A DNA stretch of 64,000 bases, from the IMG/VR virus record IMGVR_UViG_3300050821_002957, positions 271,192 to 335,191 of that record, one strand, 5' to 3'. The notes beneath the pieces were generated by a model. The model saw only the letters and a list, made by a program, of their open reading frames with translations, did not search any database and was not told the DNA's origin. A program made the translations under genes and the position numbers. Shown here one piece after another: positions 2,540 through 62,064 of this stretch (its first letter is position 1; every line of letters begins with the position of its first letter). The DNA is from a virus.

Positions 2540-2816
2540 CGAGTCACGGCAACTTTTTTTCAAGACGTTTCATCTCGATCAGTTGATGAAACAAGTCGGT
2601 ACAGGTTTTCAACTGATCGAAAAATCGAGGATCGGCTGGCTTTTCTTCGGGATGGAGTGAAACCATTGTCGAAAGCAGCCCATTACAGGCTTCAATTTTG
2701 CGTTCCAACAAAGTGATAGGACTGGGTTTCACAAATACCGGAGCCGGGGGAGGAACGCTCCGTGAAGGAACGTTCCCCAAAGTCGTCAAGAGAAGGATGG
2801 CGACTATCATATCGTT

Positions 2817-3620
2817 TTACAGGGCGAACAGCGTGCCGAGTTTCTGCGTCGATTCCAAGGCTACGTGCGGATGCTTCACGATCTCATCCCGAAAAACTTC
2901 CGTGAAGGCGTTATGCAGAGACCACATGCTGCGTCCCTTGAATTCGTCGTGGCGAGGCTCAAAGTATTCGTGAGCGACAGGCAGCACTTGATTCTGATTG
3001 ATAATGCCACTTTCCAGCGCATCAAAAATCGTCGCTTTCGCTTCGATATCGGTGATCTTTGTTTCCTTCAGCAAATTCACCCGATTGCCCAGGACATCGA
3101 ACTTGAGAATCGCCTTGTCCACGCCGCCGAAGATGGCAGTGCGAGGATTTAAACCAGCAGTATGCTTCCGCCACAGAATTTCCTCATCTCCAGACAAAGC
3201 CATGTTGTCGCAGCAGAAGACACGGAACCCGGCGACCAGACCAACCGCCATCGACTTGTCATTGGCCGCACGCAGACCCATTGCAAAGGCGAAATCGTCT
3301 ACTGCACGCTTCAATACCAGGGTGCCGAAGAGCTTCATTCCGTTGCTCATGACGGCCATTTCACAGCGGTCGATGGAAATTTTGTGGTCGGCCAAACGCT
3401 CTTCGATCAAGTTGATGAAATCGGCGTGAGCGACGGGACGATGGGTAAGGGTGCGTGGCGGGGTATTCAAATTCAGAAGTTCGCCACGAGAAATCCGTAC
3501 TGCGCCCCGGTGGGTACAGAGAGTTGCGCTAACGTTCTTGGCTTCCATTTTGGAACCATCCATTTCTGCCGAGTTCGTCTCGACAAAACAATCATACGCC
3601 AATCTGAATCGAGATGTCAA
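2817..3620 (-). CDS. hypothetical protein, possibly of the DUF932 phage/plasmid-related family
   Basis: 267-aa ORF next to ParB. The family assignment is only a recollection of overall resemblance and is not verified. Confidence 0.3.
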   Translation of the reverse strand: MTSRFRLAYDCFVETNSAEMDGSKMEAKNVSATLCTHRGAVRISRGELLNLNTPPRTLTHRPVAHADFINLIEERLADHKISIDRCEMAVMSNGMKLFGTLVLKRAVDDFAFAMGLRAANDKSMAVGLVAGFRVFCCDNMALSGDEEILWRKHTAGLNPRTAIFGGVDKAILKFDVLGNRVNLLKETKITDIEAKATIFDALESGIINQNQVLPVAHEYFEPRHDEFKGRSMWSLHNAFTEVFRDEIVKHPHVALESTQKLGTLFAL

Positions 3621-4956: not shown

Positions 4957-5725
4957 TTTGCTTGGAGACCTTATAAATAGATGCGTGACCTATTGTATCT
5001 ACTCCATCACAAACAATTTGAACAGAAAACGTTATATAGGATTTACTGGTAACTTTCGTGTTCGGAAGAATAAACACAAAGACTTGTCTCGACGAGGAAG
5101 CCTTCAGGCAATTCATCATGCTATCCGCAAATACGGTTGGGAAAATTTTTCATGGGAAATTCTCTTTGAATCTAGCGACCGTGAACAGACTCTTAATGTA
5201 AAAGAGCCGGAATTCATAAAGCTCTATCAGACACAAAATCCCAAATATGGATACAACCAAACTGCTGGTGGCGAACACTATGTTTTGTCAGAAGAAGCTC
5301 GTCACAAAATTTCTCTCTCGAAACTAGGAAAGAAGAGACCGCCCCATGTTATTGAAGCTCTGCGACGTGCAAACTTCGGAACCAAACAAAGTGAAGAACG
5401 TAAAGCTAGACAAAGTGAATTACTAAGACACCGTTATGACCACAAGCCAAATCCAATGAAGGGTCGCAAACTGACCGAGCCGCACAAACAAAAACTCAGG
5501 GCAGTACATCCACACTTACCACACACCAAAACATCCAAAGCAAAAATTGCAGAAAAGAACAGCCGCCACTGGACCGTTGTCTTCCCGGATGGGCACCAAG
5601 AACAAATCGTGAACATGGCAAAGTTTTGTAGAGAGCACAATCTCCACCAGTCAAATATGTCAGAGACTCAATCGAATGGGAAGACTTACAAAGGATTTAA
5701 ATGTTGCCGATCCGAAATAACTTAA
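4957..5725 (+). CDS. GIY-YIG homing endonuclease
   Basis: The motifs CIYSITNNLNRKRYIGFTGNFRVR...YGYNQTAGGE are present, with a basic C-terminal DNA-binding region. Confidence 0.75.
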
Positions 5726-6819
5726 GCCTGCTTGCGTCTCGTGCGCTTAACCACTGGAGCCGTCTCTTCGACTTGAGTTCCATCATGATCAGGTAGAAGA
5801 ATCTCGTCACCTTCTTCAGGCGCTTCGATTTCCCATTCAATTTTTCCTTCGACCGCTTTGCAATAGACATACGATCCAGGAGAAATTTTGCCGTCAATAA
5901 AGTCGTCTGCGAGAGGATTGAGAAGGAATCGGTTGATTACTCGCTTTAACTCTCGTGCGCCATACTGAATGCTCGTGCCGGTTTTAGTGAGCAACTCAAG
6001 AGATGGTTCATCATAGTTCATGAAGAAGCCTTTGTTTCCGAGGCGTTCCATAATCTGCGTCTGAATCTTGTTGAGTTCTAGAGTTGTAATCTTTTTTAAC
6101 ATGTCAGGACTTAGCGGTTTGTATGTGACCACTTCATCGACACGATTTGGAAACTCAGGTGGAAATTTGCGTGCTAATGCTCCAAGACCAATTCTCTGAA
6201 TAGCAGCAAAATTATGATCGCTGAATGCATCAGTAGTAATCGGACCTTGAAGTTTGTTGAAACCGAAGCCGCCTGTGAACATTTCCGACATTTCTTTTGC
6301 GCCAAGGTTAGAAGACATGAAAATAACTGTCTTCTGAAAATCTGCGCTGGTATTGTCTCCCAGGCGAAGGGTTGCTTTATCGAGAATACCGAGTAATACT
6401 CTCCAGAGAGACGCACTACCCTTTTCAATTTCGTCGAAGAGAATAATTGAAATAGGAGATTTTTCAGTAGCTACAGCATTGATCTTGGCCTGCGAAAACA
6501 CCGGATGTGTTTCACGATGTCCCAAGTAACCAGGAGGAGCACCGATCAGCTTCGCAACTTCATGTTCCATCTGAAATTCGCCACAATCGATTCTTAGTAC
6601 ATTTTTGTCTGTACCGTGAAGAACTTCTGAAAGTGTCTCAGCAGTTCTGGTCTTACCTGTTCCCGTAGGTCCCATCAAGAAGAAGACACCGACCGGGCGA
6701 CCTGGAGCATTCAATCCAGCCATCGCACGCACAATGTACGGGATGATCTTGTCGATTGCATGATCCTGTCCAACGATCAACTTCTTCCACGCTTCGGCCA
6801 GTTCTTGTGATTTCATCAT
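5722..6819 (-). CDS. Clp/Hsp100-family AAA+ ATPase, single D2-type module (ClpA/ClpB/ClpC C-terminal-like)
   Basis: It carries VGQDHAI...FFLMGPTGTGKTRTAETL (Walker A), ILFDEIEKG (Walker B), a sensor region and a C-terminal small domain. The N-domain and D1 module are absent. Confidence 0.7.
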   Translation of the reverse strand: MMKSQELAEAWKKLIVGQDHAIDKIIPYIVRAMAGLNAPGRPVGVFFLMGPTGTGKTRTAETLSEVLHGTDKNVLRIDCGEFQMEHEVAKLIGAPPGYLGHRETHPVFSQAKINAVATEKSPISIILFDEIEKGSASLWRVLLGILDKATLRLGDNTSADFQKTVIFMSSNLGAKEMSEMFTGGFGFNKLQGPITTDAFSDHNFAAIQRIGLGALARKFPPEFPNRVDEVVTYKPLSPDMLKKITTLELNKIQTQIMERLGNKGFFMNYDEPSLELLTKTGTSIQYGARELKRVINRFLLNPLADDFIDGKISPGSYVYCKAVEGKIEWEIEAPEEGDEILLPDHDGTQVEETAPVVKRTRRKQA

Positions 6820-9215: not shown

Positions 9216-9691
9216 TGTTTGATACCCGAAAGAAAGGCTTCCTGTGTAACTTCAGATACCACTACTTGACCTTTGACAAATAACATGATTGTCGGGACGG
9301 CTCTGATAGAATACTTCATCGCAAGGTCTGCATTAGTATCTACGTCAACCCTAAGAAATGTTAACTCTGGGTCTTTAGAAAGCGCAGTGATGCCGGGAGC
9401 GTACAAACTAAAATTGAGAGCAATTGCACTGGAAGCTACATTGCTCTTTTGACTCCACAGGACAATGACACTCGTTTTATTTTGAAGGATCGCATCAAAG
9501 ACGGCGGCAATAGTGATATCTGTCATCATGTCCCTATTTAGCTTGACTTTACAGTCATCCTTAAGTATACTGTTTGCACTATGGCTACCAGTAAAGATAA
9601 CACTTTTGTCTGTAGTTTCTGCGATCCCCCAAGAAAATGTGTCAACGCTCAAGGTCTCGCAGCCCATCAACGGTCGGCACACCCAGATCAA
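9203..9691 (-). CDS. thioredoxin-fold protein lacking the CxxC active site
   Basis: The C-terminus is Trx-like (VPTIMLFVKGQVV...FLSGIKQWI). The position corresponding to WCGPC reads WSQKS. The real start is probably the internal MMTD near 9529. Confidence 0.4.
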   Translation of the reverse strand: MIWVCRPLMGCETLSVDTFSWGIAETTDKSVIFTGSHSANSILKDDCKVKLNRDMMTDITIAAVFDAILQNKTSVIVLWSQKSNVASSAIALNFSLYAPGITALSKDPELTFLRVDVDTNADLAMKYSIRAVPTIMLFVKGQVVVSEVTQEAFLSGIKQWIV

Positions 9692-9841
9692 GTCAAATCA
9701 AAATCAACACCTAAAAAGACGCATCACAAAACATATCACAAAAAATCATCAGAGATCTCATTGGCCGATGCGATCAATGCGTTGGAAATCAAACGAGACG
9801 CTTTGGATGAAGTCATTAAAAATTTGAAGGAGATGTTATGA
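9581..9841 (+). CDS. small basic protein with a C2H2-type zinc finger
   Basis: The finger FVCSFC...HQRSAH (C-x2-C...H-x3-H) is followed by a K/H-rich tail. Confidence 0.35.
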   Translation: MATSKDNTFVCSFCDPPRKCVNAQGLAAHQRSAHPDQVKSKSTPKKTHHKTYHKKSSEISLADAINALEIKRDALDEVIKNLKEML

Positions 9842-10140
9842 AACCATTGAGCAGGCGACAAGTCAGTACACTACGCCATTTAAAGATTCATGGAAGCGTC
9901 AGCATAGAGAGCTTGCGGTCCTTCCACCAGGGAACAATCTGGAGCCTTATGTACAAAGGACTCGTAGTCAAATTTGGAGGATCAGATGTAGGATTATCTA
10001 CGGCAGGCGAGGCAGTCCTTCGTGACTACAATTCGACGGCCCCGAGCTATCGCAAACATGATGCCGAATTGACCGACCGAGTTCAACGTCTTCTCGTGCG
10101 AGTGAAAATTCTTCAGATGCGAAAATCTGCGGCAGCTTGA
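9838..10140 (+). CDS. hypothetical protein
   Basis: 100-aa ORF whose start ATGA overlaps the upstream stop codon. Confidence 0.3.
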   Translation: MKPLSRRQVSTLRHLKIHGSVSIESLRSFHQGTIWSLMYKGLVVKFGGSDVGLSTAGEAVLRDYNSTAPSYRKHDAELTDRVQRLLVRVKILQMRKSAAA

Positions 10141-10471: not shown

Positions 10472-11722
10472 CTAGAGACGCCCGGAACGGATCAGTTCGA
10501 GGGCCTGTTCTTTCGATTTGATGTGACCGGCAAGCTGCCCATTCTCGGCGGCGTCCAGGATTCGTTTGAAATCTGGTCCTGGCTTCATTCCAAGTGCCTT
10601 CAGATCATCCCCATTGACAAATTTTGCCGGATTCAAGTCTTCGGCCTTCATGTTGGCAAACATTTTTGACAACATCTGGAAAGCAGCGATATGGACGTGC
10701 TTGTCCTGAGCCTCTGTACGGCATCCATAGAGCTTCAAGGCGTCGGGGAACAGCTTCTCACGCATCAGGCGTTTCAACACGTCCAGCGTCGTTCCAGCCG
10801 TCACAGAACCGATTCTGGACTGAAGGTCGATGATGCCGGTAATCTGCTTGATCGTGTCGTTAAAAAACTTCAGACGTTTACCAATTTTTTCTGCGCTCCC
10901 TGAAGGCAACATGTACAACGCACCAGCCAAACCCAATGCTGGATTGATGTTGGTGCCGATGAACGAAAGTGTTGCCATCATCTGAGCGTAATCATACGGA
11001 GTCATGTGGGCAACTTCCGGCAGAACATGCTCTAAGATGCCGGTGTTGTTCATTCCCTTGATTGTCTTGTGAGCGTCATGACCCATTGCCTTGGTCAATT
11101 CCTCTGTTATGCGCTCTACGTCCATTTTCGCAATGTTCGGAGCGTGCGCCTGCATTGCCGCCAGTGTCTCTGGGTGGATCTCAAATCCGAGCTTCGCCTG
11201 AAAACGATGTGCCCGAAGCATCCGAAGATGATCCTGTGTAAAACGGTCGTTCGGATTGCCGACACATTTGATGAGGCCGTTTTTTGCATCGGCCTTGCCA
11301 CCATGAAAATCGATGATGTCACCAGTGAACGGGTCCATGTACATTGCATTGACGGTGAAGTCACGCCGGTTGGAATCTTGTTGTTGATCACGAGTGTATT
11401 CGACATCATCTGGACGCCGACCATCAGTGTACTTTCCATCTTTGCGGAATGTGGCAATGTCGATACCGTGGCAGACAACGACACCAAATGATTTTCCTAC
11501 GACACTTGTTCCTGGGAAAAGTTTGAGAACTTCTTCAGGTGTGGCGTCAGTTGCTACGTCAAAATCTTTTGGCTTGTGGCCGGTCAAAAAATCACGAACA
11601 CAACCGCCAGCGAGATAGCCGACAAAGCCGTGTCTGCGAAGCGTAGTGATTACGTCTTTGGCGTCGTCAAGCGTGCCATAGGTGGACTCCCGAAGGAGGG
11701 CGAATTGTGTAAATGAGAGCAC
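10472..11722 (-). CDS. cca: tRNA nucleotidyltransferase (CCA-adding enzyme)
   Basis: The pol-beta head motif of the CCA/poly(A) polymerase family is present (GYLAGGCVRDFLTGHKPKDFDVATDATPEEV). Length is 416 aa. Confidence 0.8.
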   Translation of the reverse strand: MLSFTQFALLRESTYGTLDDAKDVITTLRRHGFVGYLAGGCVRDFLTGHKPKDFDVATDATPEEVLKLFPGTSVVGKSFGVVVCHGIDIATFRKDGKYTDGRRPDDVEYTRDQQQDSNRRDFTVNAMYMDPFTGDIIDFHGGKADAKNGLIKCVGNPNDRFTQDHLRMLRAHRFQAKLGFEIHPETLAAMQAHAPNIAKMDVERITEELTKAMGHDAHKTIKGMNNTGILEHVLPEVAHMTPYDYAQMMATLSFIGTNINPALGLAGALYMLPSGSAEKIGKRLKFFNDTIKQITGIIDLQSRIGSVTAGTTLDVLKRLMREKLFPDALKLYGCRTEAQDKHVHIAAFQMLSKMFANMKAEDLNPAKFVNGDDLKALGMKPGPDFKRILDAAENGQLAGHIKSKEQALELIRSGRL

Positions 11723-19674: not shown

Positions 19675-19762
19675 TGGCTGGAGGAGCAGGACTCGAACCT
19701 GCATATGAGCTTTCGCTACGACACATTAACAGTGTGCTGCCTTACCGTTAGGCGACCCTCCA
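19675..19762 (-). tRNA. tRNA with a GTT (Asn) anticodon loop but a long, type-II-like variable arm; CCA encoded
   Basis: Hand fold: acceptor TGGAGGG/TCCTCCA, D-arm GCCT-AACGGTA-AGGC, anticodon loop CTGTTAA, an 18-nt variable region with an AGC-GAAA-GCT hairpin, T-arm GCAGG-TTCGAGT-CCTGC, then G and CCA. Confidence 0.45.
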
Positions 19763-19783
19763 ATATAAATGGATGTATGGCAA

Positions 19784-20217
19784 ATTCACAGAAAGTAAAA
19801 GAATGGCGCAAAAGAACCAAACAACGAATGATTGATGCAATGGGTGGATCGTGTGTAGTCTGTGGCTACACTCGTTGTTCAGCCTCATTAGGATTTCATC
19901 ATCTCGATCCGAGCAAGAAACATTTTGGTTTCGGAGGTCTTCGTGCCAACCCAAAATCTTGGGAGAAGATCAGCGAAGAACTACGAAAATGCGTTCTGAT
20001 TTGCAATCGTTGTCACGGAGAAGTACATGATGGTATAACCATCATTCCCATTAATGCAAAACGGTACGACGAAAGTTATGCTCAGAAATTTGGAAGAAGA
20101 AAAATGGCTCCGGGGACAGGACTCGAACCTGTAACATCCGCTTTAACAGAGCGGCGCTCTACCATTGAGCTACCCCGGAATGAGGTTGCTTCTTTGGTTA
20201 GGGTCACGCCGTTTTAA
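19784..20217 (+). CDS. HNH homing endonuclease
   Basis: Motifs CVVCGY...HHLDP...CNRCHGEVHDG are present. The gene lies between two tRNA genes and its 3' end overlaps the antisense tRNA at 20105-20179. Confidence 0.65.
20105..20179 (-). tRNA. tRNA-Asn (anticodon GTT), CCA encoded
   Basis: Hand fold: acceptor TCCGGGG/CCCCGGA, D-arm GCTC-AATGGTA-GAGC, anticodon arm CCGCT-CTGTTAA-AGCGG, T-arm ACAGG-TTCGAGT-CCTGT, discriminator G, CCA. Confidence 0.65.
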
Positions 20218-20520: not shown

Positions 20521-21456
20521 TTACACCACCAAATCTTTGGGCAAGCGTTCAGTCCGTGCAATCTCTTCTGCGGTCGGTTTGATCACATTGCCGACGATTC
20601 CACCGAAGATTGCTCCGACCGTATCTGTGTCGCCACCGACCTCAATGAAGCTGTTGATGCAGGATGCGAACGAAAGACCTTTTTCCAAAGCCTGATGTGC
20701 CTGCCATAATGCAAAAGGAACTGTATCGACTGCCGTTACTTCTTTGCCGTTTCCAACCTTGCCAATTATTCCCCAATTGGTTTCGTTAAATGCACCCTCA
20801 CTGGCGACCCATTCGATGCGATCACGAAGTTCCCCTGATGGTGTGTATTTGATGATGTTTAACCAGAAGTCTTCCTCAGGTCTTCCATAAGTTACGTTTG
20901 CTGCGGCTATGGCGACCGCTATCGAACCGGCAATAGCATCGACGTGATAATGGGTCACTTCGGCAGATAGACGTGCTTCTTGCGCTACAAGGCCATAGTC
21001 AGGTCCAAAGTGTGCGCCAATGACAGCATCACGCATTGCCGATCCGTTGCCTTTTGAGCCGATGCCCGGTCCCCACCAATTCTTGCTATGCTCAAGCCAA
21101 TTGTCGGAGTCATAGCTATAGGTCGTCAACAAACCACGAGTGCCACGCCCATAACCACGCTGAGGATCAACATGAAAATTACGAGCTAATTCCTGAGCGA
21201 GTTCGAGTTGATTGATCGTATTGAATCGGTACAAAGTTCTAACGACACCAATACCGACATGTGTGTCGTCTGTCCAGGGATAGAGAATGTCAATTTTTGT
21301 GATCCCTCGTTCAGTGGCGACATTCCCAGCCTTGTAATATTCAGCCGGAAGAATCTTCATCTGATTTTCGCCTGCTGCATCGCCTACCGACAAGGCAAGA
21401 AGCGAAAGATAAGTTTCTTTCTTTTTGTACTGCATCGGAGCAAGACAGGGTGTCAT
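20521..21456 (-). CDS. ADP-ribosylglycohydrolase (ARH/DraG family)
   Basis: Several ARH motifs are present: LSVGDAAGE, PWTDDTHVG, GNGSAMR and GGDTDTVGAIFGGIVG. Confidence 0.8.
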   Translation of the reverse strand: MTPCLAPMQYKKKETYLSLLALSVGDAAGENQMKILPAEYYKAGNVATERGITKIDILYPWTDDTHVGIGVVRTLYRFNTINQLELAQELARNFHVDPQRGYGRGTRGLLTTYSYDSDNWLEHSKNWWGPGIGSKGNGSAMRDAVIGAHFGPDYGLVAQEARLSAEVTHYHVDAIAGSIAVAIAAANVTYGRPEEDFWLNIIKYTPSGELRDRIEWVASEGAFNETNWGIIGKVGNGKEVTAVDTVPFALWQAHQALEKGLSFASCINSFIEVGGDTDTVGAIFGGIVGNVIKPTAEEIARTERLPKDLVV

Positions 21457-21463
21457 ATTTCAC

Positions 21464-21676
21464 CTACTTGGTCGGTTTGTGCCAACCATATGCATGTTGA
21501 GCGGTCTTTGGCTCATATCCTAGAACGAGGTTACAGTTGGCAATACATTCGTCAAGATGACCGTCGCCTTTGTGAGTTGGATCTTGCAAAAATTGAAGTG
21601 CATGACGAATTGCTTGGCGTGCAGATCGAGCTTCGTTTTGCAGACGTTGAATTTGTTCTTCTATAGTTTCTACCAT
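21464..21676 (-). CDS. small hypothetical protein
   Basis: 70-aa ORF. Confidence 0.3.
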   Translation of the reverse strand: MVETIEEQIQRLQNEARSARQAIRHALQFLQDPTHKGDGHLDECIANCNLVLGYEPKTAQHAYGWHKPTK

Positions 21677-22101: not shown

Positions 22102-22175
22102 TGGCAGGAGTGGTAGGAGTTGAACCCACGCTAAAGGTTTTGGAGGCCCTTGTGCTACCGTTACACCACACTCCT
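22102..22175 (-). tRNA. tRNA-Trp (anticodon CCA)
   Basis: Hand fold: acceptor AGGAGTG/CACTCCT, D-arm GTGT-AACGGTA-GCAC, anticodon loop CTCCAAA, T-arm GTGGG-TTCAACT-CCTAC, G and CCA. Confidence 0.6.
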
Positions 22176-25029: not shown

Positions 25030-25105
25030 TGGTTGGCCCAGATGGAATCGAACCATCAACCTCAGAATTATCAGTTCTGCGCTCTACCAATTGAGCTATG
25101 GGCCA
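25030..25105 (-). tRNA. tRNA-Ile (anticodon GAT), CCA encoded
   Basis: Hand fold: acceptor TGGCCCA/TGGGCCA, D-arm GCTC-AATTGGTA-GAGC, anticodon arm CAGAA-CTGATAA-TTCTG, T-arm GATGG-TTCGATT-CCATC, discriminator A, CCA. Confidence 0.7.
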
Positions 25106-25190: not shown

Positions 25191-26984
25191 CTACTCTTCG
25201 GTCTCTTCTGCGATCCCAGCACTTGAACCACGAATAAAATCCGTAACCAATGCTGGAACATTCGAGTCGAACCCAACGATGTCCAAAGAATACGGGTCCT
25301 TCGGATCTGCGATGGTAAATTGCGTAGAAACCATTCCCATCACGATCAGGCGCACATCATCCTGCCCACGATGCTTACGATACTGCTTGAGAGCCTGCGA
25401 CGGTTGCATTTGTCCAGCCCAAGTCTCATTATCCGTGATCACCATGAAAGCGTCTGCGTCGATGCCAGCCTTTTGAGCGTGAAGCATCGGTGCAGCACAA
25501 TCGGTTCCACCAGCCGACATGCGAGAGGTCTTTGCCAACGCAGTCTTCAGAGTGTCCTTTGCGGTGATGCCAATTTCCTGCATTCCCGTAGAAAATGCAT
25601 AGATAGCGTAATTCGGTTCCGTGCGAGCCACAACCATCGCCATTGCTGCGCCTGCTTGTGCTGCCGTGATTCCGGTGCCTTGGATGATGCTGGACGCCCA
25701 CGACATAGAACCAGAAACGTCCATGCCAATGTACGTAGCCTTACCAGTCGGAATTGCGTTTGCGAATGCCAAGTAGAACGTGTTCTCTAAAGCGTCCACA
25801 ATGGTCGGTACAACGGTCCAGGTCGCATCGCTGCGCTGACCGTGGCCTTGGCCGTAGGTGCCTTGTGCCAACAATACCTGGAGCGGGTGAATCTTGCTCT
25901 TCTTGACGTAGGCTTCATCGTTCAAACGAGACACGACGAGCTTCGATGCTGCCGACAGCGGCTTCAAGAGACCAATCTTCGACATGGTTCCAAGATTACG
26001 AACCATTGCAGTTACCGGCATCTTCTGAAGCAGAGCTTCCCAGACTTCCGGTTGCGTCTTAAACTGCGTCGGAATCATTTCGTGAGTCAATCCACCGTCG
26101 ATGATGCACTTTACGATAGTGCTCGTATCCGTCGCCTTCTTTGCGGTTTCATAGGCGGTGATCAACTTCGGTGCGTTCGATCCGGTCAACAAATCATAAG
26201 CGTTCTGATAGCGAGCACGCTGATTCTGAATTTCCGCAGAAGTCAGATCAGTCGTGCGATGGCTGTTGCCCTGCCACTTCTTGACAGAACGAGTCCAGTT
26301 CTGAGCAGCTTCGTTCAAGGCATCGAGACCACCGAAACGACCCCAAGCCAGCAAAGCACTCTTCATCGGATCAGTCGCCTTGACGTGTGCGAGGCTGACG
26401 AGATCACGAGTGGACCAGCCATCACGCTGTTGATACTTCGCCAACTGATAAGCCAGCGAATCTTCCGTGCGTTCGGTGTACCAGTTGCCGATTGCAGTCT
26501 TTACACCACGACCGTATCCACGCATGGAATCGAGGTACTCGTTGAAGTGGAACATGTGAGTACCGATACGTGCAACCTTGCTCAATTGCGACAGAGCATA
26601 AGCAGCAGTTTCAGCCGAACCAAAATTCGGTGTTGCGGCAACTGCCAGGGCAAACAATGCCGGATCGTTCTTCGGAGCACGGCCTGCTTGCGAAATGTTG
26701 ACGATCATATCGACCGTGCGCTTTCCATCCAACTGCAAGCACGCACGAACGTTCGCTGCGTTGTCTACAGTCATCTTCTTGGCAGATGCATAGTACGTCG
26801 GCGCATCGCTACCGAGAATCAAAAATCGTTCGAGCATCTGGAAGGGAGTGATGGTGAAGGTGTATCCACCAGCGTTGTTCTGCTTCATCTCTGCTTCCCG
26901 GCCCGGAATTGCCTGCGACTGTGATGTCTTCTTGCCGCTTAATACCGTTGCGTAATTGCTCTTTGCTGATCCTGCCTTTGCCAT
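25191..26984 (-). CDS. rsr: Ro60/Rsr orthologue (TROVE domain plus C-terminal vWA domain)
   Basis: The TROVE-like N-region (GGYTFTITPFQMLERFLILGSDAPTYY) is followed by the vWA MIDAS motif YIGMDVSGSM. A GGAGA SD sits 7 nt upstream of the ATG at 26984. The longer ORF start in the track is probably not used. Confidence 0.75.
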   Translation of the reverse strand: MAKAGSAKSNYATVLSGKKTSQSQAIPGREAEMKQNNAGGYTFTITPFQMLERFLILGSDAPTYYASAKKMTVDNAANVRACLQLDGKRTVDMIVNISQAGRAPKNDPALFALAVAATPNFGSAETAAYALSQLSKVARIGTHMFHFNEYLDSMRGYGRGVKTAIGNWYTERTEDSLAYQLAKYQQRDGWSTRDLVSLAHVKATDPMKSALLAWGRFGGLDALNEAAQNWTRSVKKWQGNSHRTTDLTSAEIQNQRARYQNAYDLLTGSNAPKLITAYETAKKATDTSTIVKCIIDGGLTHEMIPTQFKTQPEVWEALLQKMPVTAMVRNLGTMSKIGLLKPLSAASKLVVSRLNDEAYVKKSKIHPLQVLLAQGTYGQGHGQRSDATWTVVPTIVDALENTFYLAFANAIPTGKATYIGMDVSGSMSWASSIIQGTGITAAQAGAAMAMVVARTEPNYAIYAFSTGMQEIGITAKDTLKTALAKTSRMSAGGTDCAAPMLHAQKAGIDADAFMVITDNETWAGQMQPSQALKQYRKHRGQDDVRLIVMGMVSTQFTIADPKDPYSLDIVGFDSNVPALVTDFIRGSSAGIAEETEE

Positions 26985-27059
26985 ATCATTATCTCCTATG
27001 ATACCTAATTTTTTCGACTTCACCAGAATAACACATGCCTGATTGTTGTCAAGCATGTA

Positions 27060-29018: not shown

Positions 29019-29618
29019 CTACTCTTCTCTCGGACGAGGCTTGACGATCTTGTCGATGATGCCGTATGCCAGTGCTTCTTCGGCATCCATGATGTAGTCA
29101 CGCTCAAGATCCTTCTCGATGCGCTCAATCGGCTGACTTGTCAAATCAACCATCATGTTGACCAGACGCTTCTTGGTCTTTAAAATATGTTCGGCGTAGA
29201 TCGCAATGTCTGTAGCCTGTCCACCAAGACCGTACATCGACGGCTGGTGAATCATGACCTCAGCACCAGGAAGAGCAAACCGCTTGCCCTTGGTGCCACA
29301 CATCAAGATTGATGCACCCATCGAAGCTGCACGACCGACACAGGTAGTCTTGATATCGACACCGACGAGGTTCATGGTATCAATGATTGCCATGCCTGCG
29401 GAGATCGATCCACCCGGCGAATTGATGTAAATCTGAATGTCTTTCTCAGGATTTTCGGTCGAGAGATAAAGTAACTGTGCGACGACAGCGTTCGCAACAT
29501 AGTCATCAATCGGTGTTCCCAAGAAAATGATATTGTCTTTCAACAGACGTGAGTAAATATCATACGCACGTTCACCCTTGTGATCCGATTCGATTACGAT
29601 TGGAGTAAGCATTGACAT
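29019..29618 (-). CDS. clpP: ATP-dependent Clp protease proteolytic subunit ClpP
   Basis: It has the catalytic Ser context [11 protein letters not shown], the His context MIHQPS and the ClpP N-terminal region [13 protein letters not shown]. Confidence 0.85.
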
Positions 29619-29856: not shown

Positions 29857-30264
29857 CTACTTCAAATTCAGATCCTTACGAATCTTGTCAATCTTGTTAT
29901 TGGTAACTCGATTGTACTCGGACATGATGCGTTTCATAATCGTCCTGAACGATATCTGCACGATCAAAAAAAACATCGCTAACGGCCAGCAAATGACATC
30001 ATAAGCAATTTCCCCACGAAAATCAATTGCTTTCGGTGGTACAGCTTTTAGACGTATGTTGTTTTTTACATAATTCCGCCATTCATAGATGAGAAACTCT
30101 GGGATATTTTCACCCCGAATCCTATGAAACAACAAGAATCGTGCTCGTTCTGCCTCATAGAATCCAATCTCATCATCGACGTACAGCTTCCACCTGATGA
30201 ACCCCCATAAAAAACCCACGGCTGCATAACCAAACACAGCCAGGACATAGTAAAAAATTTTCAT
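29857..30264 (-). CDS. membrane protein
   Basis: An N-terminal TM helix and a second helix are present in 135 aa. Confidence 0.3.
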   Translation of the reverse strand: MKIFYYVLAVFGYAAVGFLWGFIRWKLYVDDEIGFYEAERARFLLFHRIRGENIPEFLIYEWRNYVKNNIRLKAVPPKAIDFRGEIAYDVICWPLAMFFLIVQISFRTIMKRIMSEYNRVTNNKIDKIRKDLNLK

Positions 30265-30797
30265 TGCGGCTCGAAGAGAATGACGTGTATGTTATCAAGC
30301 TCCTGTAGTCTATCATAAACCAATGCCTTTACGTCAACAAAATTCAGACCACCATTCGCACAACCTAACGCAGGCATCGCAAGAGACTTGATGAGTAAAC
30401 CTGACTTCAGCCGGTCCTTCAAATCATCGAGGCCAGCGGCGATCCATTCTAGTTTTGATCCATTTCTCCAATCGTCTTTCGTCGGAAAATTGATAATGAA
30501 TTCGTTGATCTGAGATGTTTGATAGTGTTCACATCCGCAGGCACACCACAACCCCTGATCATGGGCGTCAAAATCACATTCACAAAGACAGTCAGGGATT
30601 TCATGCCAAACCCAAACCTTACCAGTCTGAATGTACTTGCGAGCGCACAATTTCCTGTATTCGACGTACATGTCAGGATAACGCTGCTTGAACTGGAGTG
30701 CGATACCTTTGCCCATCACGCCGACACAATTCACAGTGTTGACGATAGCTTGTGCGCCGCAGTCGAAGAGGTTACCAGTCGTTCGTGTTTCGATCAT
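30261..30797 (-). CDS. macrodomain protein of the TARG1/DarG type (ADP-ribose hydrolase) with a Cys-rich insertion
   Basis: GNLFDCGAQAIVNTVNCVGVMGKGIALQFKQRYP resembles TARG1 GDLFSCP...CRMGAGIAVLFKKKF. The C-terminal LAMPALGCANGGL resembles LSMPRIGCGLDRL. An insert CLCECDFDAHDQGLWCACGCEH is present. Confidence 0.65.
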   Translation of the reverse strand: MIETRTTGNLFDCGAQAIVNTVNCVGVMGKGIALQFKQRYPDMYVEYRKLCARKYIQTGKVWVWHEIPDCLCECDFDAHDQGLWCACGCEHYQTSQINEFIINFPTKDDWRNGSKLEWIAAGLDDLKDRLKSGLLIKSLAMPALGCANGGLNFVDVKALVYDRLQELDNIHVILFEPQ

Positions 30798-39012: not shown

Positions 39013-39255
39013 TCATCCAATGTGAGCCGATACCACATTTCCGTTGACAACTTTAAAATTTATCCGAAAAGCGTTGTGGTCATTGTTGAGTGGTTGAAGC
39101 CCTGAATGTTCAACTTTTACGATGAAACCTGCCTGCTGTGCTTTGCTTTGTGCTTCGTCGATTCTCATCCCGACATATTGTGAAACGTCCATAATTTTAT
39201 ACCTATTGTGACTGACAGGCTTTCCGCCCCGAATTTTTGGTGTTAGGAAATCCAT
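39013..39255 (-). CDS. small protein with a PASTA/BamE-like segment
   Basis: It contains YVGMRIDEAQSKAQQAGFIVKV. Confidence 0.25.
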   Translation of the reverse strand: MDFLTPKIRGGKPVSHNRYKIMDVSQYVGMRIDEAQSKAQQAGFIVKVEHSGLQPLNNDHNAFRINFKVVNGNVVSAHIG

Positions 39256-39557
39256 TATTCCTCGTCGTTAATATCTAGCCAATCGGGAGCTTCCCAGGTT
39301 CGGTGAATAACTCTGACGTAGATTACACCTTCTTCTTCGTCAAGATTCCATTCAAGATCATCGCCAACTTCTATGTTCAATTCACGAACTAATCCATCTG
39401 GCAGTGTCATCATTCCGTTCGGTTGTATGACACAGGCATATGACCTATTACCAAATCCAGAGTTCACCCAGACACCTAAAATGGGTGGTTCATCATTATC
39501 TTCAGTCGGCTCTTCGTCAAAGTCTTCCGGTTCTAGCTCTGCGTAATCTTCAGCCAT
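39255..39557 (-). CDS. AbrB/SpoVT (MazE-like) swapped-hairpin domain protein with an acidic N-terminus
   Basis: It contains MMTLPDGLVRELNIEVGDDLEW. Confidence 0.35.
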   Translation of the reverse strand: MAEDYAELEPEDFDEEPTEDNDEPPILGVWVNSGFGNRSYACVIQPNGMMTLPDGLVRELNIEVGDDLEWNLDEEEGVIYVRVIHRTWEAPDWLDINDEE

Positions 39558-40681
39558 TTTCTTCCTACCCGAATCACTGACATTTCTGGCAACGGTTCTT
39601 TGAGTCTTGGATCGATAACTACACTACCATTTACATTTACGGCTCCGCTCTTCACCAGACGACTGCCCTCTGAGACCGAAGATGCCAAACCCATCAGCAC
39701 CAAGACTCGATCCAGGCGTGTATTGACCGAATGAAAAACCGGAATTCTTACAACTGGAATATCGACCGGCGCTTCACGATCTGAAAATCTCTTTGTCCAT
39801 TCAATTTCAGCGGTGTCTGCTTTTGGTTCGTCATGTAACCAATGAACAATTCGCCATGCCAAATATTTCTTAGATTGAAATGGTTGAGGATGCCAGCCAC
39901 ATTTATTTGGAAACAGAACCTCTTGCCATTGGCGCATTACATCATCAGCAATCGACATAACTTTGCTGAACATTTCAAATGGTTCATCCAGCAAACCAAT
40001 GTGATTACCGAACGACTTGGACATCTTTCGACCGTCCGTACCAAACAACAAAGGAACCGTCGCAATAACCTGAGGTTTCTCACCACGATCATGCATGTAC
40101 ATCCGGCCCATCAGCATGTTGTAAAATTGATCGTTGCCGCCAAGTTCAATATCTACACCTTCTCTGAAAGAGTCATATGCCTGAAGCATGGGGTATAACA
40201 TCTCATGCATAAAGACCGGAGTGTTTGTTACCTTGCGTTCTTTAAAATCGTCACGGCCACCGATTTGACTGAGGGTGAAATGGGACATGAGACGAATTAC
40301 ATCTTGCATCTTCATCTCGTCAAACCATTCGGCATTCTTTTTGACGACGGTTTTGGTTCGATCCAAAATTTTGAAAGCCTGTGTCATATAGCTCCAGGCG
40401 TTCGTATTGATTTCATCGTCAGAAAGCGCAGGCCGAAGCTGATTGCGCCCGGTCGGATCACCAATCGATGCTGTGGTGTTGCCGACGATCATCACAATGG
40501 TGTGCCCAGCATCCTGAAATTCACGCATCTTTTTCAACAGCACAGCATGACCAAGATGTAGGTCTGGTGCTGTGGGATCGAATCCGGCTTTCACACGTAA
40601 CGGATGACCTGACGCAATAAGAGCATCAAACTCCTTTTCGTCGAGGAGTTGCGTAAACCCGGATTTGAGTGATTGTTGCAC
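39533..40681 (-). CDS. tyrS: tyrosyl-tRNA synthetase
   Basis: It has the class I HIGH motif in a TyrRS context (GFDPTAPDLHLGH), the KMSKS motif and a C-terminal S4-like domain (LVKSGAVNVNG). Confidence 0.85.
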   Translation of the reverse strand: MQQSLKSGFTQLLDEKEFDALIASGHPLRVKAGFDPTAPDLHLGHAVLLKKMREFQDAGHTIVMIVGNTTASIGDPTGRNQLRPALSDDEINTNAWSYMTQAFKILDRTKTVVKKNAEWFDEMKMQDVIRLMSHFTLSQIGGRDDFKERKVTNTPVFMHEMLYPMLQAYDSFREGVDIELGGNDQFYNMLMGRMYMHDRGEKPQVIATVPLLFGTDGRKMSKSFGNHIGLLDEPFEMFSKVMSIADDVMRQWQEVLFPNKCGWHPQPFQSKKYLAWRIVHWLHDEPKADTAEIEWTKRFSDREAPVDIPVVRIPVFHSVNTRLDRVLVLMGLASSVSEGSRLVKSGAVNVNGSVVIDPRLKEPLPEMSVIRVGRKWLKITQS

Positions 40682-40704
40682 CCAACTAGTTTAGCATATG
40701 AAAA

Positions 40705-41022
40705 TTAATCGTCAACCACTTTACCGCCTCGGATCACTTGTGCATTGAACGTGACTTTGGCAGTTCCGGCGAAAGGACTCATTGGTTGCGGTCGGCCTTC
40801 AGAATCGGTAAAGACGGGAAGCTGCCGTACAACTTTTTCGGGGATATCAAGTGTCGTAAAAAGTTCGTCAAAAATTTTCTGGATGCCTTTGTTCAACTCT
40901 TCTCTGCTGGCACCGAAAATTTCTTTCTGAAATTTTCCTGGTAGGGCAACATTGGCGACGAATTCCTGGACACCATCTTTGATTCCATAGTCACTAAAAC
41001 GAACAAGTATCACTTCTCTCAT
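40705..41022 (-). CDS. hypothetical protein
   Basis: ORF trimmed to MREVILVRFSDYG. It may have an alpha/beta sandwich fold. Confidence 0.3.
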   Translation of the reverse strand: MREVILVRFSDYGIKDGVQEFVANVALPGKFQKEIFGASREELNKGIQKIFDELFTTLDIPEKVVRQLPVFTDSEGRPQPMSPFAGTAKVTFNAQVIRGGKVVDD

Positions 41023-41102
41023 AACTGCATTTAGACAATAAAAAAAGGAGCAGATCCTAAGACCCACTCCCTTTCTAGACATAAGACTGAACAAAAACTA
41101 TT

Positions 41103-41930
41103 TTAGGCGACCTGAGTGATCTGCCAGAAATCGTCTGCAAGATTTCCATCAAGCAAGTACTCGAACGGCATGTAGAAGTAACCCTTTGCGCCCCAGAAAG
41201 GACCCCAGGAATTACGGACGATGAAAGTACGAGGCGGTGCGCCATTGACTGTCGTGTTGGTTGCATTGTAGCCGACAACCAATACAGCATGTCCACCCAA
41301 TAGATTTTCAGAAGCAGCAGGCATCGGAACAATTCCGGTTGCTGCTACTTGTGCGCTTTCAAAAGAATCATAGACGCTGAATCCGATCACGAACGGGAAA
41401 CCCGATGCGAGGCAGGACTGCATTGCGTTCAATTCTTGTGGAACACTTGCGTATTGAATGGCCTTGCTCTTCAAAGCAGTCGTATAGCAAGAGGCCGGTG
41501 GCTTCTCAGTGAACTTTGAAGTGTTATAAGGCCATGTTGCTTCCGGTGGGACTCCCCAGGTTGCTACGGCTTTGATGCCATCGCTAAGAGTTGCGCCGGA
41601 ATCCGAAGATACAGTGCCTTCTTCGACACGCTCATTGTAATAAATGAACAGGCGAGATGGCATGAAAATCGGAAGTTTCAATTTAATCTGATCGTATTCA
41701 ATTGCGCCTGCGATAGCATTTGCAGTGCATGATCCGAGTTGCTGCTGGTTGTAACAGGCAGGACATCCTGAACGCATGTCTACGAAAGTAGCGATCTTTT
41801 CAGGTGCAATCCGTGCTGCGAAGATTCTTTTGCGATGGTCAGGAAGAGACGGCTTCCAGCCATATTTCTTGCCGAGTGGAGAGAGTTTGTTGCTCATGCT
41901 GCTATTTAGCAGCATAGAAATCGTTGTCAA
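41103..41930 (-). CDS. papain-like (C1 family) cysteine peptidase
   Basis: The catalytic Cys lies in QQQLGSCTANAIAGAI and the His in LGGHAVLVVGYN. A FIVRNSWGPFWGAKGYFYMPFEYL segment follows. Confidence 0.7.
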   Translation of the reverse strand: MTTISMLLNSSMSNKLSPLGKKYGWKPSLPDHRKRIFAARIAPEKIATFVDMRSGCPACYNQQQLGSCTANAIAGAIEYDQIKLKLPIFMPSRLFIYYNERVEEGTVSSDSGATLSDGIKAVATWGVPPEATWPYNTSKFTEKPPASCYTTALKSKAIQYASVPQELNAMQSCLASGFPFVIGFSVYDSFESAQVAATGIVPMPAASENLLGGHAVLVVGYNATNTTVNGAPPRTFIVRNSWGPFWGAKGYFYMPFEYLLDGNLADDFWQITQVA

Positions 41931-41933
41931 CTA

Positions 41934-42314
41934 TCAACAACAACCCACCCCACGATGATCATAACAATAGTCTTCCGGTTTTGGATTTAAAATATCATCC
42001 AAAACTGCCCAGGCCATCGCCACTCGGAACCAACAATGTTCGGCACCGATAATTTCCATGCTCTCAAATAGCGGCGGCGAGTCCAGACGAAAAGTAATCG
42101 CCACTCGGACAGGAACAAAGAAACGTCTTTTGTCAACCCCAAGTTCCGTTGCCAAATCCATCAAAGTTTTCTTGATGGTCTCGGTCGTGAAATCATCTTT
42201 GATGGATAAGAGCGCATTTTTGGTTCGCTCCAACACCAAAACAGATTCTTGGATTGTTCCTTTTTTGGCCGGGATCAACAACAACGGATCGTATTCTTTC
42301 AGACCGGCGCTCAT
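41934..42314 (-). CDS. stand-alone protein resembling the GluRS C-terminal subdomain (YqeY/GatB_Yqey-like)
   Basis: LATELGVDKRRFFVPVRVAITFRLDSPPLFESMEIIGAEH resembles the FMPLRVALTG...LLGKE segment of GluRS. Confidence 0.4.
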   Translation of the reverse strand: MSAGLKEYDPLLLIPAKKGTIQESVLVLERTKNALLSIKDDFTTETIKKTLMDLATELGVDKRRFFVPVRVAITFRLDSPPLFESMEIIGAEHCWFRVAMAWAVLDDILNPKPEDYCYDHRGVGCC

Positions 42315-42892
42315 AATACCAGCTTTCGTTCGATTTCTGCCGCCATACGAAGATCAGTAATTCGCACAATCGGCAACACCCAATTCTGTGTTTCAAGTTT
42401 GTACTTGTTCCGGCGAGCTTCTTCCCACTTGCTCAAATCGGTCACGTTGTCAATCCGGTCACAACCTTTGATGCGGCGAGGACGAGCATCGGCGTGTGTC
42501 AACGTCATATAATATTCATCGTCGGGCCGTTTTGCACGAGCTACCAATTCGCCTGTAATTGGATTGAACGACGGCAATTCTTTGGACAATACGATAATAT
42601 CTTCGTACATTTCTTGCCCGAACAGATTCACTATTACCGAAGTTGGAACATAACAATCTTCGACGATATCATGCCCAAGTCCCAACGCTACATGCATAGC
42701 GTCGGCGTAACCATAAGTCATCGCAACGTCGAATGCAACACGGCGAACGTGCTCAAAATACCGTTCACCAGTCAGACGGCGGCTCTGCTTACGATGCGCT
42801 TCCTTGACCAACCAATACATGCGCTGGACATACGACAGTTCATCAGCATTCAAATACTCAGCCATCGTATTGAAAAATTCTTTACGGTTCAT
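42311..42892 (-). CDS. HD-domain phosphohydrolase (RelA/SpoT-type (p)ppGpp hydrolase-like)
   Basis: The HD motif context is RYFEHVRRVAFDV...HVALGLGHDIVED. The promoter TTGACA-N18-TAGCGT lies upstream. Confidence 0.6.
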   Translation of the reverse strand: MNRKEFFNTMAEYLNADELSYVQRMYWLVKEAHRKQSRRLTGERYFEHVRRVAFDVAMTYGYADAMHVALGLGHDIVEDCYVPTSVIVNLFGQEMYEDIIVLSKELPSFNPITGELVARAKRPDDEYYMTLTHADARPRRIKGCDRIDNVTDLSKWEEARRNKYKLETQNWVLPIVRITDLRMAAEIERKLVL

Positions 42893-61465: not shown

Positions 61466-61705
61466 ATGGGATACCACAAAGTAGAGATTAAAAGAGGCGT
61501 TCTTGGAGAGATCAGTAAAATCCAGGAAGAGCTTGACGAACTACAAGACGCTGAAGGGCAGCATGTTCGTCTTTTGATGTTGTGTGAACTGGCGGATTTG
61601 GTAGGAGCCATTGACCACTATCTCAGAGTAAATTTTCCAGATTGGGGCATTAACGATTTGCATCATATGGCATTGCTTACACAAGAGCACAAAGAGGGGA
61701 GATGA
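61466..61705 (+). CDS. MazG-like all-alpha NTP pyrophosphatase (small form)
   Basis: It carries LGEISKIQEELDELQDA...ELADLVGAIDHY. Confidence 0.4.
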   Translation: MGYHKVEIKRGVLGEISKIQEELDELQDAEGQHVRLLMLCELADLVGAIDHYLRVNFPDWGINDLHHMALLTQEHKEGR

Positions 61706-62064
61706 GTAGAACAATTAACGATCACGTAGTACAGGGCGATACTGCTCGACAATTAATCATTGAAGTCTTGGATGAACCCGGACAAGGCGGCGCAAATCAT
61801 TTGTACGCTATTAGGAATGGCCTAGATTTTTTGTGCAGCGTCAGATTTCAAAATGGTCCGATTAAGGAATTTGGTGTGAATGGCATCACTCAAGAAGCGT
61901 TGTTGGCAATCGTCATCGACCGGCTGCGTTGTTTTCAGGCAGGACCGTTCGCCGGGGAACACAATGCCATTGCTCTTGAAAAGTGTGAAGATGCCCTGAA
62001 TCACTTACAGGCACGAACCAGAGATCGTATTGCTCGTGGTGTCGAAGGAACAAGCACAAAATGA
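61702..62064 (+). CDS. hypothetical protein
   Basis: 120-aa ORF. Confidence 0.3.
   Translation: MSRTINDHVVQGDTARQLIIEVLDEPGQGGANHLYAIRNGLDFLCSVRFQNGPIKEFGVNGITQEALLAIVIDRLRCFQAGPFAGEHNAIALEKCEDALNHLQARTRDRIARGVEGTSTK

Follow-up and report, generated by a model that had tools for sequence, protein, structure and literature searches.

One question raised by the 64,000-nucleotide stretch of viral DNA considered here (positions 271,192 to 335,191 of IMG/VR record IMGVR_UViG_3300050821_002957, henceforth the window: 64 kb of a genome of ~405 kb, of which ~340 kb lie outside the inspected part) is what a large phage gains from a gene for an ADP-ribosylhydrolase (ARH) that has neither a fused nor an obligate partner. 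The answer at which we arrive is graded. On sequence and structural model the gene product is predicted, with high confidence, to be an active, metal-dependent ADP-ribosyl hydrolase of the ARH3 type. As to its part in infection, we give a rough probability of 0.45 to the reading that it would remove ADP-ribose from macromolecules as a stand-alone counter-defence eraser, in a role complementing that of a DarG2-like macrodomain encoded by the same phage.

The gene, its family and its active site

The gene and its ribosome-binding signal are placed as follows.

20521..21456, minus strand: ARH3-like ADP-ribosylhydrolase gene, 311 amino acids (aa) from an ATG start (PF03747, family profile, AlphaFold2, Foldseek)
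21460..21465, minus strand: Shine-Dalgarno AGGTGA, 3 nt before the start codon at 21456 (direct sequence reading)

The open reading frame (ORF) runs exactly as a first-pass annotation, made from the letters of the window, had placed it, and the 311-aa start is favoured because AGGTGA precedes the ATG at 21456 and the internal Met8, when the sequence upstream of it is read, has no comparable Shine-Dalgarno. Consensus scans for promoters and terminators near the gene returned weak, uninformative matches only. The ARH family named in that annotation is borne out by the Pfam profile PF03747, which matches the 311-aa protein over profile positions 3-276 of 287 at E=6.8e-36 and 124.8 bits, the gathering cut-off being 26.2 bits, and likewise by PHROG 6572 (ADP-ribosylglycohydrolase; E=5e-23); the four motifs that it quoted are all found in the translation, namely SVGDAAGE at residues 23-30, TDDTHVG at 62-68, GNGSAMR at 136-142 and GGDTDTVGAIFGG at 274-286.

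Which branch of the superfamily the protein belongs to is a separate issue, on which several comparisons agree. A search of the Protein Data Bank (PDB) with the single sequence finds ARH3 best (E=1e-13), DraG being matched through its C-terminal motif only (E~5e-3) and ARH1 insignificantly, and a profile of the family scores 149 bits against ARH3 (E=1e-42), compared with 94 bits for MJ1187, 65 for Tri1 (6DRE), 62 for the Thermus ARH, 57 for DraG and 48 for ARH1. Against the NCBIfam equivalog models the protein reaches 32.9 bits for DraG (TIGR02662, cut-off 337.05, the C-terminal motif alone being matched) and 21.7 bits for Tri1 (NF041672, cut-off 490). The AlphaFold2 model, computed from an alignment of the phage protein with 39 homologs of 36-73% identity (40 sequences), is all-helical, with a predicted local distance difference test (pLDDT) of 92.6 and a predicted template-modelling score of 0.92, and in a Foldseek comparison with the PDB its top 46 matches are all ARH3 (template-modelling score 0.72-0.76, 21-24% identity), the Foldseek probability being 1.00 to ARH3, MJ1187 and the Thermus ARH. 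DraG, Tri1 and ARH1 were rejected as identities, the first two lying far under their equivalog cut-offs and the scores by profile well under that of ARH3. The superfamily that the first-pass annotation named thus stands, while the Arg-linked chemistry on which its mention of Tri1 and of Arg-ADPr substrates drew is less favoured. With DraG and Tri1, the Arg-specific bacterial ARHs, the phage protein would have superfamily and two-metal chemistry in common, but the DraT/nitrogenase or Tre1 context is not present around its gene, and the Pfam annotation of the window contains neither DraT nor nif genes.

The best match in both sequence and fold is vertebrate ARH3 (ADPRS/ADPRHL2; 2FOZ, 6D36, 6G1P). 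Both proteins have the TDD and DxDT metal motifs, the ligand loops RGYG and GSxGNGxAMR and a TH motif, and each is single-domain, all-alpha and ~300-350 aa long. The phage protein differs in the register of its N-terminal Glu, in Lys135, which stands for Tyr149, in a flap of its own at residues 31-58 and in a phage setting with no PARP/HPF1 system to oppose; at so low an identity we take it to be an ARH3-like relative and not an ARH3 ortholog. Since an ARH3-like identity favours O-linked substrates (Ser, phosphate, ribose) over Arg-linked chemistry, the preferred linkage is probably O-glycosidic, that is Ser-, phosphate-end- or ribose-linked.

The elements of the predicted active site, read from the amino towards the carboxyl end of the protein, are these.

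21367..21384, minus strand: GDAAGE motif, residues 25-30, with the candidate catalytic Glu E30 (conservation in the 40-sequence alignment)
21283..21366, minus strand: clade-specific 'flap', residues 31-58, after the Glu (low pLDDT; conservation in the phage clade)
21265..21273, minus strand: T62-D63-D64, predicted first metal-binding triad (invariant in 40/40; aligns with the TDD of ARH3)
21031..21060, minus strand: GSKGNGSAMR loop, residues 133-142, predicted to bind the diphosphate and adenine of ADP-ribose (aligns with G-S148-Y149-G-N151-G of ARH3)
20950..20955, minus strand: T168-H169 'TH' motif (invariant; aligns with T181-H182 of ARH3)
20620..20631, minus strand: D276-T277-D278-T279, predicted second metal-binding motif (D276, D278 and T279 invariant in 40/40; aligns with D314-D316-T317)

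The correspondence with human ARH3 was established by HMMER alignments and the known T76/D77/D78 numbering, the chain index of 2FOZ plus 16 giving the UniProt number. In this mapping T62/D63/D64 are equivalent to T76/D77/D78 and D276/D278/T279 to D314/D316/T317, and these six residues are invariant in the alignment (40/40), as are D244, R100-G101-Y102 and T168-H169; further invariants of the same 40 sequences are G133-S134, G136-N137-G138, M141, D26 and G29, and E30 is kept in at least 90% of them. On the ligand side S134 corresponds to S148, N137 to N151, H169 to H182, G101 to G115, W128 to F143 and K135 to Y149, whereby, of the six ADP-ribose-binding positions of ARH3 (F143, S148, Y149, N151, H182 and the G115 loop), five keep the same or a similar residue and Y149 becomes Lys. 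By the titles of their PDB entries, the deposited mechanistic structures of ARH3 carry mutations of E41, D77 and D314 (E41A, D77A, D314A, D314E). The first-pass annotation had asked for this comparison of the metal-site Asp and Thr residues, whose loss would have marked a pseudo-enzyme; the aligned residues are invariant, and a pseudo-enzyme was for this reason dismissed as the leading explanation. Conservation of the metal site and of the diphosphate and ribose contacts across 40 such diverse sequences is the pattern typical of active enzymes.

The N-terminal glutamate is less straightforward. The candidate E30 lies at the position G+1 (GDAxGE) and not at the canonical G+4 (GDALGxxxEF), which a family member, P0116, retains as GDAFGGNFEF; in ARH3 the corresponding motif is GDCVGSFYE. 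Local sequence alignments with the PDB chains begin only after this motif. Directly behind E30 follows the flap of residues 31-58, the sole low-confidence stretch of the AlphaFold2 model (pLDDT 50-66), in which N31, K34, L36, P37, Y41 and G44 are invariant among the 19 members of the phage clade, and in whose place the bacterial homologs of the alignment have unrelated sequence. It lies where ARH3 has its flexible Glu flap, and it may constitute a clade-specific element of substrate recognition.

The glutamate register and the Lys in place of Tyr149 are also what could be said for the view that the protein is no ADP-ribose hydrolase at all, being instead a pseudo-enzyme, a binding protein or an ARH-fold hydrolase of another ribosyl substrate. 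Some ARH-fold proteins, such as ARH2 and crystallin J1, are catalytically inactive, and the Streptomyces homologs of the phage protein lie in an AurF-type operon. However, with every residue aligned to the metal site and to the diphosphate and ribose contacts of ARH3 invariant among the homologs, as would be typical of active enzymes, we consider this view highly improbable. As an active hydrolase the protein would bind an ADP-ribosylated substrate, and its two-metal centre (T62/D63/D64 and D276/D278/T279) together with Glu30 would cleave the C1'' bond of the distal ribose by hydrolysis, yielding free ADP-ribose and the unmodified acceptor.

A predicted eraser without an evident partner

If the enzyme is active, one has to ask whose marks it removes, and here the other eraser of the genome is instructive.

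30261..30797, minus strand: orphan DarG2-like macrodomain, 178 aa, ~9 kb from the ARH gene and on the same strand (Pfam Macro, E=5.9e-12)

The claim of the first-pass annotation that the phage encodes two different ADP-ribose-removing enzymes holds, this macrodomain being real and unrelated to the ARH. It matches the PADLOC model of DarG at E=4.3e-58 through the macro part alone (positions 4-146 of 329) and is conserved in the relative L003 (such handles denote homologous loci). The macrodomain of chimalliviruses, AdfM, is a DarG2-like orphan antitoxin that protects them from DarTG2 (PMC13309987), and the protein at 30261..30797 has the same macro-only architecture; it is probably an anti-DarTG2 factor of the AdfM kind, though its phage belongs to the T4 superfamily and not to the chimalliviruses. 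A second precedent is AdfN, a NADAR protein and the anti-DarTG1 factor of T4, for which counter-defence is proven (PMC11825919). Like the phage ARH, both are stand-alone ADP-ribose erasers of T4-like and jumbo phages; unlike it, they have antitoxins as nearest relatives and proven DNA substrates, and their folds are unrelated to that of ARH (PMC11825919, PMC13309987). A 375-kb relative, L005, encodes a NADAR protein of 164 aa (2572-3066), an AdfN-like candidate, between its Ro60 gene and its tRNA array. Judged by sequence, as many as three unrelated superfamilies (ARH, macro and NADAR) appear to supply the clade with erasers.

Jumbo phages with an ARH are known already. ARH domains (there termed ARG) were catalogued in 2022 in ~5% of jumbo phages, with examples in an ART-ARG pair of Aeromonas phage Aeh1 (ART, ADP-ribosyltransferase), in Gordonia phage GMA2 and in nucleocytoplasmic large DNA viruses (PMC9503650), and the present gene is a new, previously unsampled lineage of that category. 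The catalogued proteins of Aeh1, GMA2 and the giant viruses belong to the same superfamily and show 13-19% identity to the AlphaFold2 model in structure-based alignment. Phage ARH domains are rare compared with Macro and NADAR, for which soluble derivatives were proposed as substrates, and on this ground the ARH domains were argued to target macromolecular conjugates, a role for which those outside ART-paired systems have no direct evidence (PMC9503650).

The natural host counterpart, were the phage ARH an orphan antitoxin, would be DarG3, which is described as an ARH-fold antitoxin that neutralises the DarT-family ART of the anti-phage system DarHTG (PMC13069673). The bacterial and archaeal homologs of the phage protein, 33-40% identical at most, come from a wide range of phyla, among them Actinomycetota, Chloroflexota, Planctomycetota, Verrucomicrobiota and Myxococcota. 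In 80 genomes three genes were called to either side of the ARH (447 neighbours, 146 of them immediate). The commonest neighbour family occurs in no more than 5 loci, and among the top 25 families listed for the 146 immediate neighbours Pfam shows none that recurs, be it DarT, ART, Sir2 or any other, and PADLOC sporadic matches only. In these listings neither DarT nor helicase genes were found beside the 80 homologs, though a match at a single locus may lie below them, and an origin as orphan antitoxin, unsupported by these loci, was rejected.

T4-like phages commonly carry ARTs, and the ARH might thus serve as antidote to, or tuner of, an ART of the phage itself, be it Alt/Mod-like or of the ART-PolyVal family, in the manner of the ART-ARG pairs known from Aeromonas phages (PMC9503650). 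At one locus, L174, a stand-alone 148-aa ART-PolyVal gene (PF18760; 4690-5136, minus strand) does lie 1.5 kb from the ARH, and a 73%-identical copy is found on a contig of 399,930 bp, which is exactly the length of the contig that bears the ARH P0024. But homologs of the L174 ART are missing from the window and from the ARH loci L001, L003, L005, L173 and L175, and of the 16 detectable relatives of this ART none is on the ARH-bearing contigs of 405,631, 370,131 or 374,748 bp. As an adjacent partner it was therefore rejected, its relatives tying it to only one other ARH genome; its co-occurrence with the ARH is patchy, and the ARH is retained without it, because the window and the other loci named have no homolog of the ART. 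Nor does this clade show the adjacent ART partner of the Aeromonas pairs. No ART family is among the precomputed Pfam matches of the window, although no search seeded with Alt, ModA or ModB was made, and a PHROG scan of its ten large unannotated ORFs gave none; a distant Alt/Mod-like ART elsewhere in the ~405 kb is possible. Taken together we regard a role directed at the phage's own ART as unlikely.

The substrate could alternatively be soluble, the enzyme acting as a glycosidase on ADP-ribose-derived signals or metabolites instead of macromolecular adducts, with the ADP-ribose feeding NAD+ recovery. An ARH3-like profile and fold would be compatible with such a role, and there is a functional precedent in the phage protein RyDEP, an unrelated RyR-domain glycosidase, which destroys 2'cADPR and 3'cADPR (cADPR, cyclic ADP-ribose) and feeds NAD+ resynthesis (PMC13232231). 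The window contributes a NUDIX gene and a 120-aa protein with an Acb2_Tad1_hairpin Pfam match (61702-62064, plus strand), a candidate sponge for cyclic nucleotides or cADPR (anti-CBASS or anti-Thoeris), and in the distant locus L097, which represents an independent phage lineage (ARH 45% identical), a cytidylyltransferase-like gene of the NMNAT/PPAT family (9508-10002; E=1.6e-15) overlaps the start of the ARH and may hint at NAD metabolism. This neighbour, however, occurs once only and may just as well be a PPAT; genes of the NARP1/NARP2 or NadV type are not seen beside the ARH in the main clade; our literature search met no report of an ARH that cleaves cADPR isomers; and the abundance patterns already mentioned argue for macromolecular targets of phage ARHs (PMC9503650). 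A soluble substrate hence seems to us improbable.

The tRNA slot and its surroundings

The phage is a member of an uncultured T4-superfamily clade with genomes of 370-405 kb. Affiliation to this superfamily follows from the UvsW, UvsY, gp53, sheath, endonuclease VII and Rad50/Mre11-like genes which Pfam recognises in the window, its UvsW being ~41% identical to those of the best-matching cultured phages (Methylophilales phage Melnitz and cyanomyoviruses). Metagenomic contigs as long as 405,631 bp carry the identical ARH protein, those of 370,131, 374,748 and 399,930 bp carry relatives 60-70% identical to it, and orthologs (51-73% identity) occupy the same locus in at least five phage genomes of 370-405 kb. 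Neither the locus nor the ARH finds a megablast match in the GenBank phage set, in which tblastn likewise gives none at E<=1e-5, and IMG/VR holds a single ARH relative at 45%, the rest being other ARH subfamilies at <=35%.

Within these genomes the ARH sits in a tRNA array, in a slot bounded by two tRNA genes.

20105..20179, minus strand: tRNA-Asn(GTT), downstream boundary of the slot (ARAGORN, Rfam)
22102..22175, minus strand: tRNA-Trp(CCA), upstream boundary of the slot (ARAGORN, Rfam)

The order Trp, ARH, Asn inside the array is common to the window, L003, L005, L173 and L174. A Ro60 gene lies 4-10 kb upstream of the ARH wherever the locus extends far enough (in the window, at ~4 kb, and in L003, L005, L173 and L175), and L175, in which tRNA-Tyr genes are the sole tRNAs detected at the locus, has both Ro60 and a gene for the initiation factor IF1. 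Eight relatives (L003, L005, L093-L095 and L173-L175) have this IF1 (eIF-1a/S1-fold, 70 aa; in L003 at 9792-10004) next to the ARH on its upstream side, their copies being 64-78% identical to one another; the window lacks it. The small ORFs that flank the ARH were considered as partners and rejected: the 70-aa ORF upstream recurs only in the closest relative, L003, and those downstream are unrelated among L001, L003, L005 and L012.

Counting the whole window, its translation and RNA genes comprise seven or eight tRNAs, Ro60 (TROVE-vWA), a CCA-adding enzyme, a tyrosyl-tRNA synthetase-like (TyrRS-like) protein, an Anticodon_2-domain protein and a histidyl-tRNA synthetase-like (HisRS-like) protein, and among its other genes are an HD_4 hydrolase, ClpP and a ClpX-like ATPase. 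Because the ARH gene sits in this block of tRNA, Ro60, CCA-adding enzyme and aminoacyl-tRNA synthetase genes, its target is possibly to be sought in the RNA or translation machinery.

A rival to the counter-defence reading is the healing of RNA ends within a tRNA-repair module, the enzyme removing ADP-ribose caps from 5'- or 3'-phosphate ends, for example those made by Tpt1/KptA, for the repair or recycling of tRNA. Both ARH3 and the Streptomyces coelicolor protein SCO5809, a stand-alone enzyme described as an ARH3 homolog, hydrolyse phosphate-end ADP-ribosylation on RNA and DNA (PMC11833690). To this may be added the position in the tRNA array, with Ro60, the CCA-adding enzyme and the TyrRS-like gene nearby and IF1 in relatives, as well as the Tpt1/KptA and RlaP genes that adjoin single bacterial homologs. 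Tpt1 and RlaP, however, are Pfam singletons (1/146 immediate neighbours each); in the Pfam annotation of the window there is no RNA ligase, polynucleotide kinase/phosphatase or Tpt1; the synteny of related phages is not independent evidence; and what phosphate-end ADP-ribosylation of RNA does in the cell is itself unclear (PMC11833690). RNA-end healing accordingly strikes us as quite unlikely. The inference from SCO5809 also has to be drawn with care: the nearest cellular relatives include Streptomyces proteins ~37% identical to the phage ARH, but S. coelicolor has seven DraG-like paralogs (PMC5087735), of which the tested protein need not be the one in the subfamily of the phage enzyme.

The surroundings of the slot show some further peculiarities. 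The Ro60/TROVE + vWA homolog (621 aa; 25191-27056, minus strand) is followed 86 nt downstream by a tRNA-Ile gene (25030-25105, minus strand), an adjacency that L005 repeats; although there is no Rfam match to a Y RNA there, a divergent Y-RNA- or tRNA-like partner could hide at this place. Near the ARH gene itself Rfam finds tRNAs only, and no Y RNA or other structured RNA. At 19675-19762 (minus strand) lies a tRNA of 88 nt with the anticodon GTT (Asn) and a variable arm of ~13 nt, unusual for tRNA-Asn; the long-arm architecture is kept in L174 (6238-6324, 87 nt), and the normal 75-nt tRNA-Asn adjoins it in the window. Antisense between the two tRNA-Asn genes is an ORF for an HNH homing endonuclease (19705-20217, plus strand; PHROG 35854, E=5e-27), a placement which suggests endonuclease-associated duplication or insertion within the array.

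Farther off, the region 39255-42892 (minus strand) encodes a MazE-like protein (weak match), the TyrRS-like protein (tRNA-synt_1b + S4), a peptidase C1, the Anticodon_2 protein and the HD_4 protein (a RelA/SpoT-type hydrolase, weak match); the CCA-adding enzyme is at 10472-11722 (minus strand) and the HisRS-like protein at 62061-62798 (plus strand). The ClpX-like AAA+ ATPase (AAA_2 + ClpB_D2-small; 5722-6819, minus strand) and the ClpP protease (29019-29618, minus strand) are ~22 kb apart, and ClpP adjoins the macrodomain in relatives too.

What the eraser may act on

The reading that we prefer is that of a counter-defence eraser: during infection the enzyme would strip ADP-ribose marks laid on macromolecules by the ART toxins or defences of the host, while the DarG2-like macrodomain of the same genome would take care of thymine-linked DNA ADP-ribosylation. 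In its favour are the family and fold, the conserved residues, the retention of the gene across the clade, the other erasers of these phages with their proven precedents AdfM and AdfN, the published argument for macromolecular targets of phage ARHs (PMC9503650) and a stand-alone position, the 64-kb window having yielded no ART. Several considerations weigh against it. We know of no host ART defence whose product an ARH3-type enzyme reverses, and to our knowledge no phage ARH, this protein included, has been biochemically characterised. In the enzyme itself, the Glu register is shifted, and Lys135 stands at the position of Tyr149, which in ARH3 stacks on the adenine. Its closest bacterial relatives, unlike those of AdfN and AdfM, are not antitoxins of toxin-antitoxin systems. 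The position in the tRNA array is common to genomes that are related and syntenic, and is therefore weak evidence of functional linkage; among the distant phage homologs (L012, L013 and L097, 45-46% identity) L012 and L013 have no tRNAs within 10 kb, L097 having them 2 kb off.

The published chemistry imposes constraints of its own. ARH3 and SCO5809, the ARH3-like Streptomyces enzyme, failed on RNA ADP-ribosylated at guanine bases, which NADAR reverses, and on the 2'-OH ADP-ribosylated RNA made by RhsP2, which PARG reverses (PMC11833690). Reversal of RhsP2-type 2'-OH modification, attractive as it is chemically, was thus rejected as the function of the phage enzyme, the published assays pointing to PARG only and not to ARH3 or ARH-like proteins (PMC11833690), and the CmdT-type ADP-ribosylation of adenine in RNA has so far been described as irreversible (PMC13036486). 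The roles that the first-pass annotation thought plausible, reversal of CmdTAC, ParT or Tre-like toxins or the tuning of an Alt/Mod-like ART of the phage, are thus to be taken as hypotheses.

A bolder extension of the counter-defence reading would make the protein a third class of orphan eraser in phages, after AdfN and AdfM, in which an ARH3-type enzyme opposes a host ART product that lies beyond the reach of Macro and NADAR. The defence in question could be DarHTG/DarG3-like, or a new ART directed at tRNA, rRNA or a translation factor; the flap of residues 31-58 would then serve in recognition, and the gene would form part of a translation-protection island together with the tRNAs, Ro60, the CCA-adding enzyme, the aminoacyl-tRNA synthetase-like genes and the HD-domain hydrolase. 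In this specific form we hold the proposal to be rather unlikely.

The wider interest of the locus lies in the asymmetry between the eraser superfamilies. NADAR (AdfN) and the macrodomain (AdfM) are two of three with proven phage counter-defence, whereas for phage erasers of the ARH fold a role is yet to be demonstrated, and the present clade offers a clean test case, its ARH being intact-looking, stand-alone, ARH3-like and retained in several genomes of 370-405 kb that encode a DarG2-like macrodomain too and, in the case of one relative, a NADAR protein. The identity of its substrate would reveal a type of host ADP-ribosylation that the other two erasers cannot handle, and might thereby uncover a new ART-based defence or the enzymatic destruction of ADP-ribose-derived immune signals. 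Should the substrate turn out to be an ordinary one, that is Ser- or phosphate-linked ADP-ribose, the gene would merely represent a new lineage in a category that has already been catalogued.

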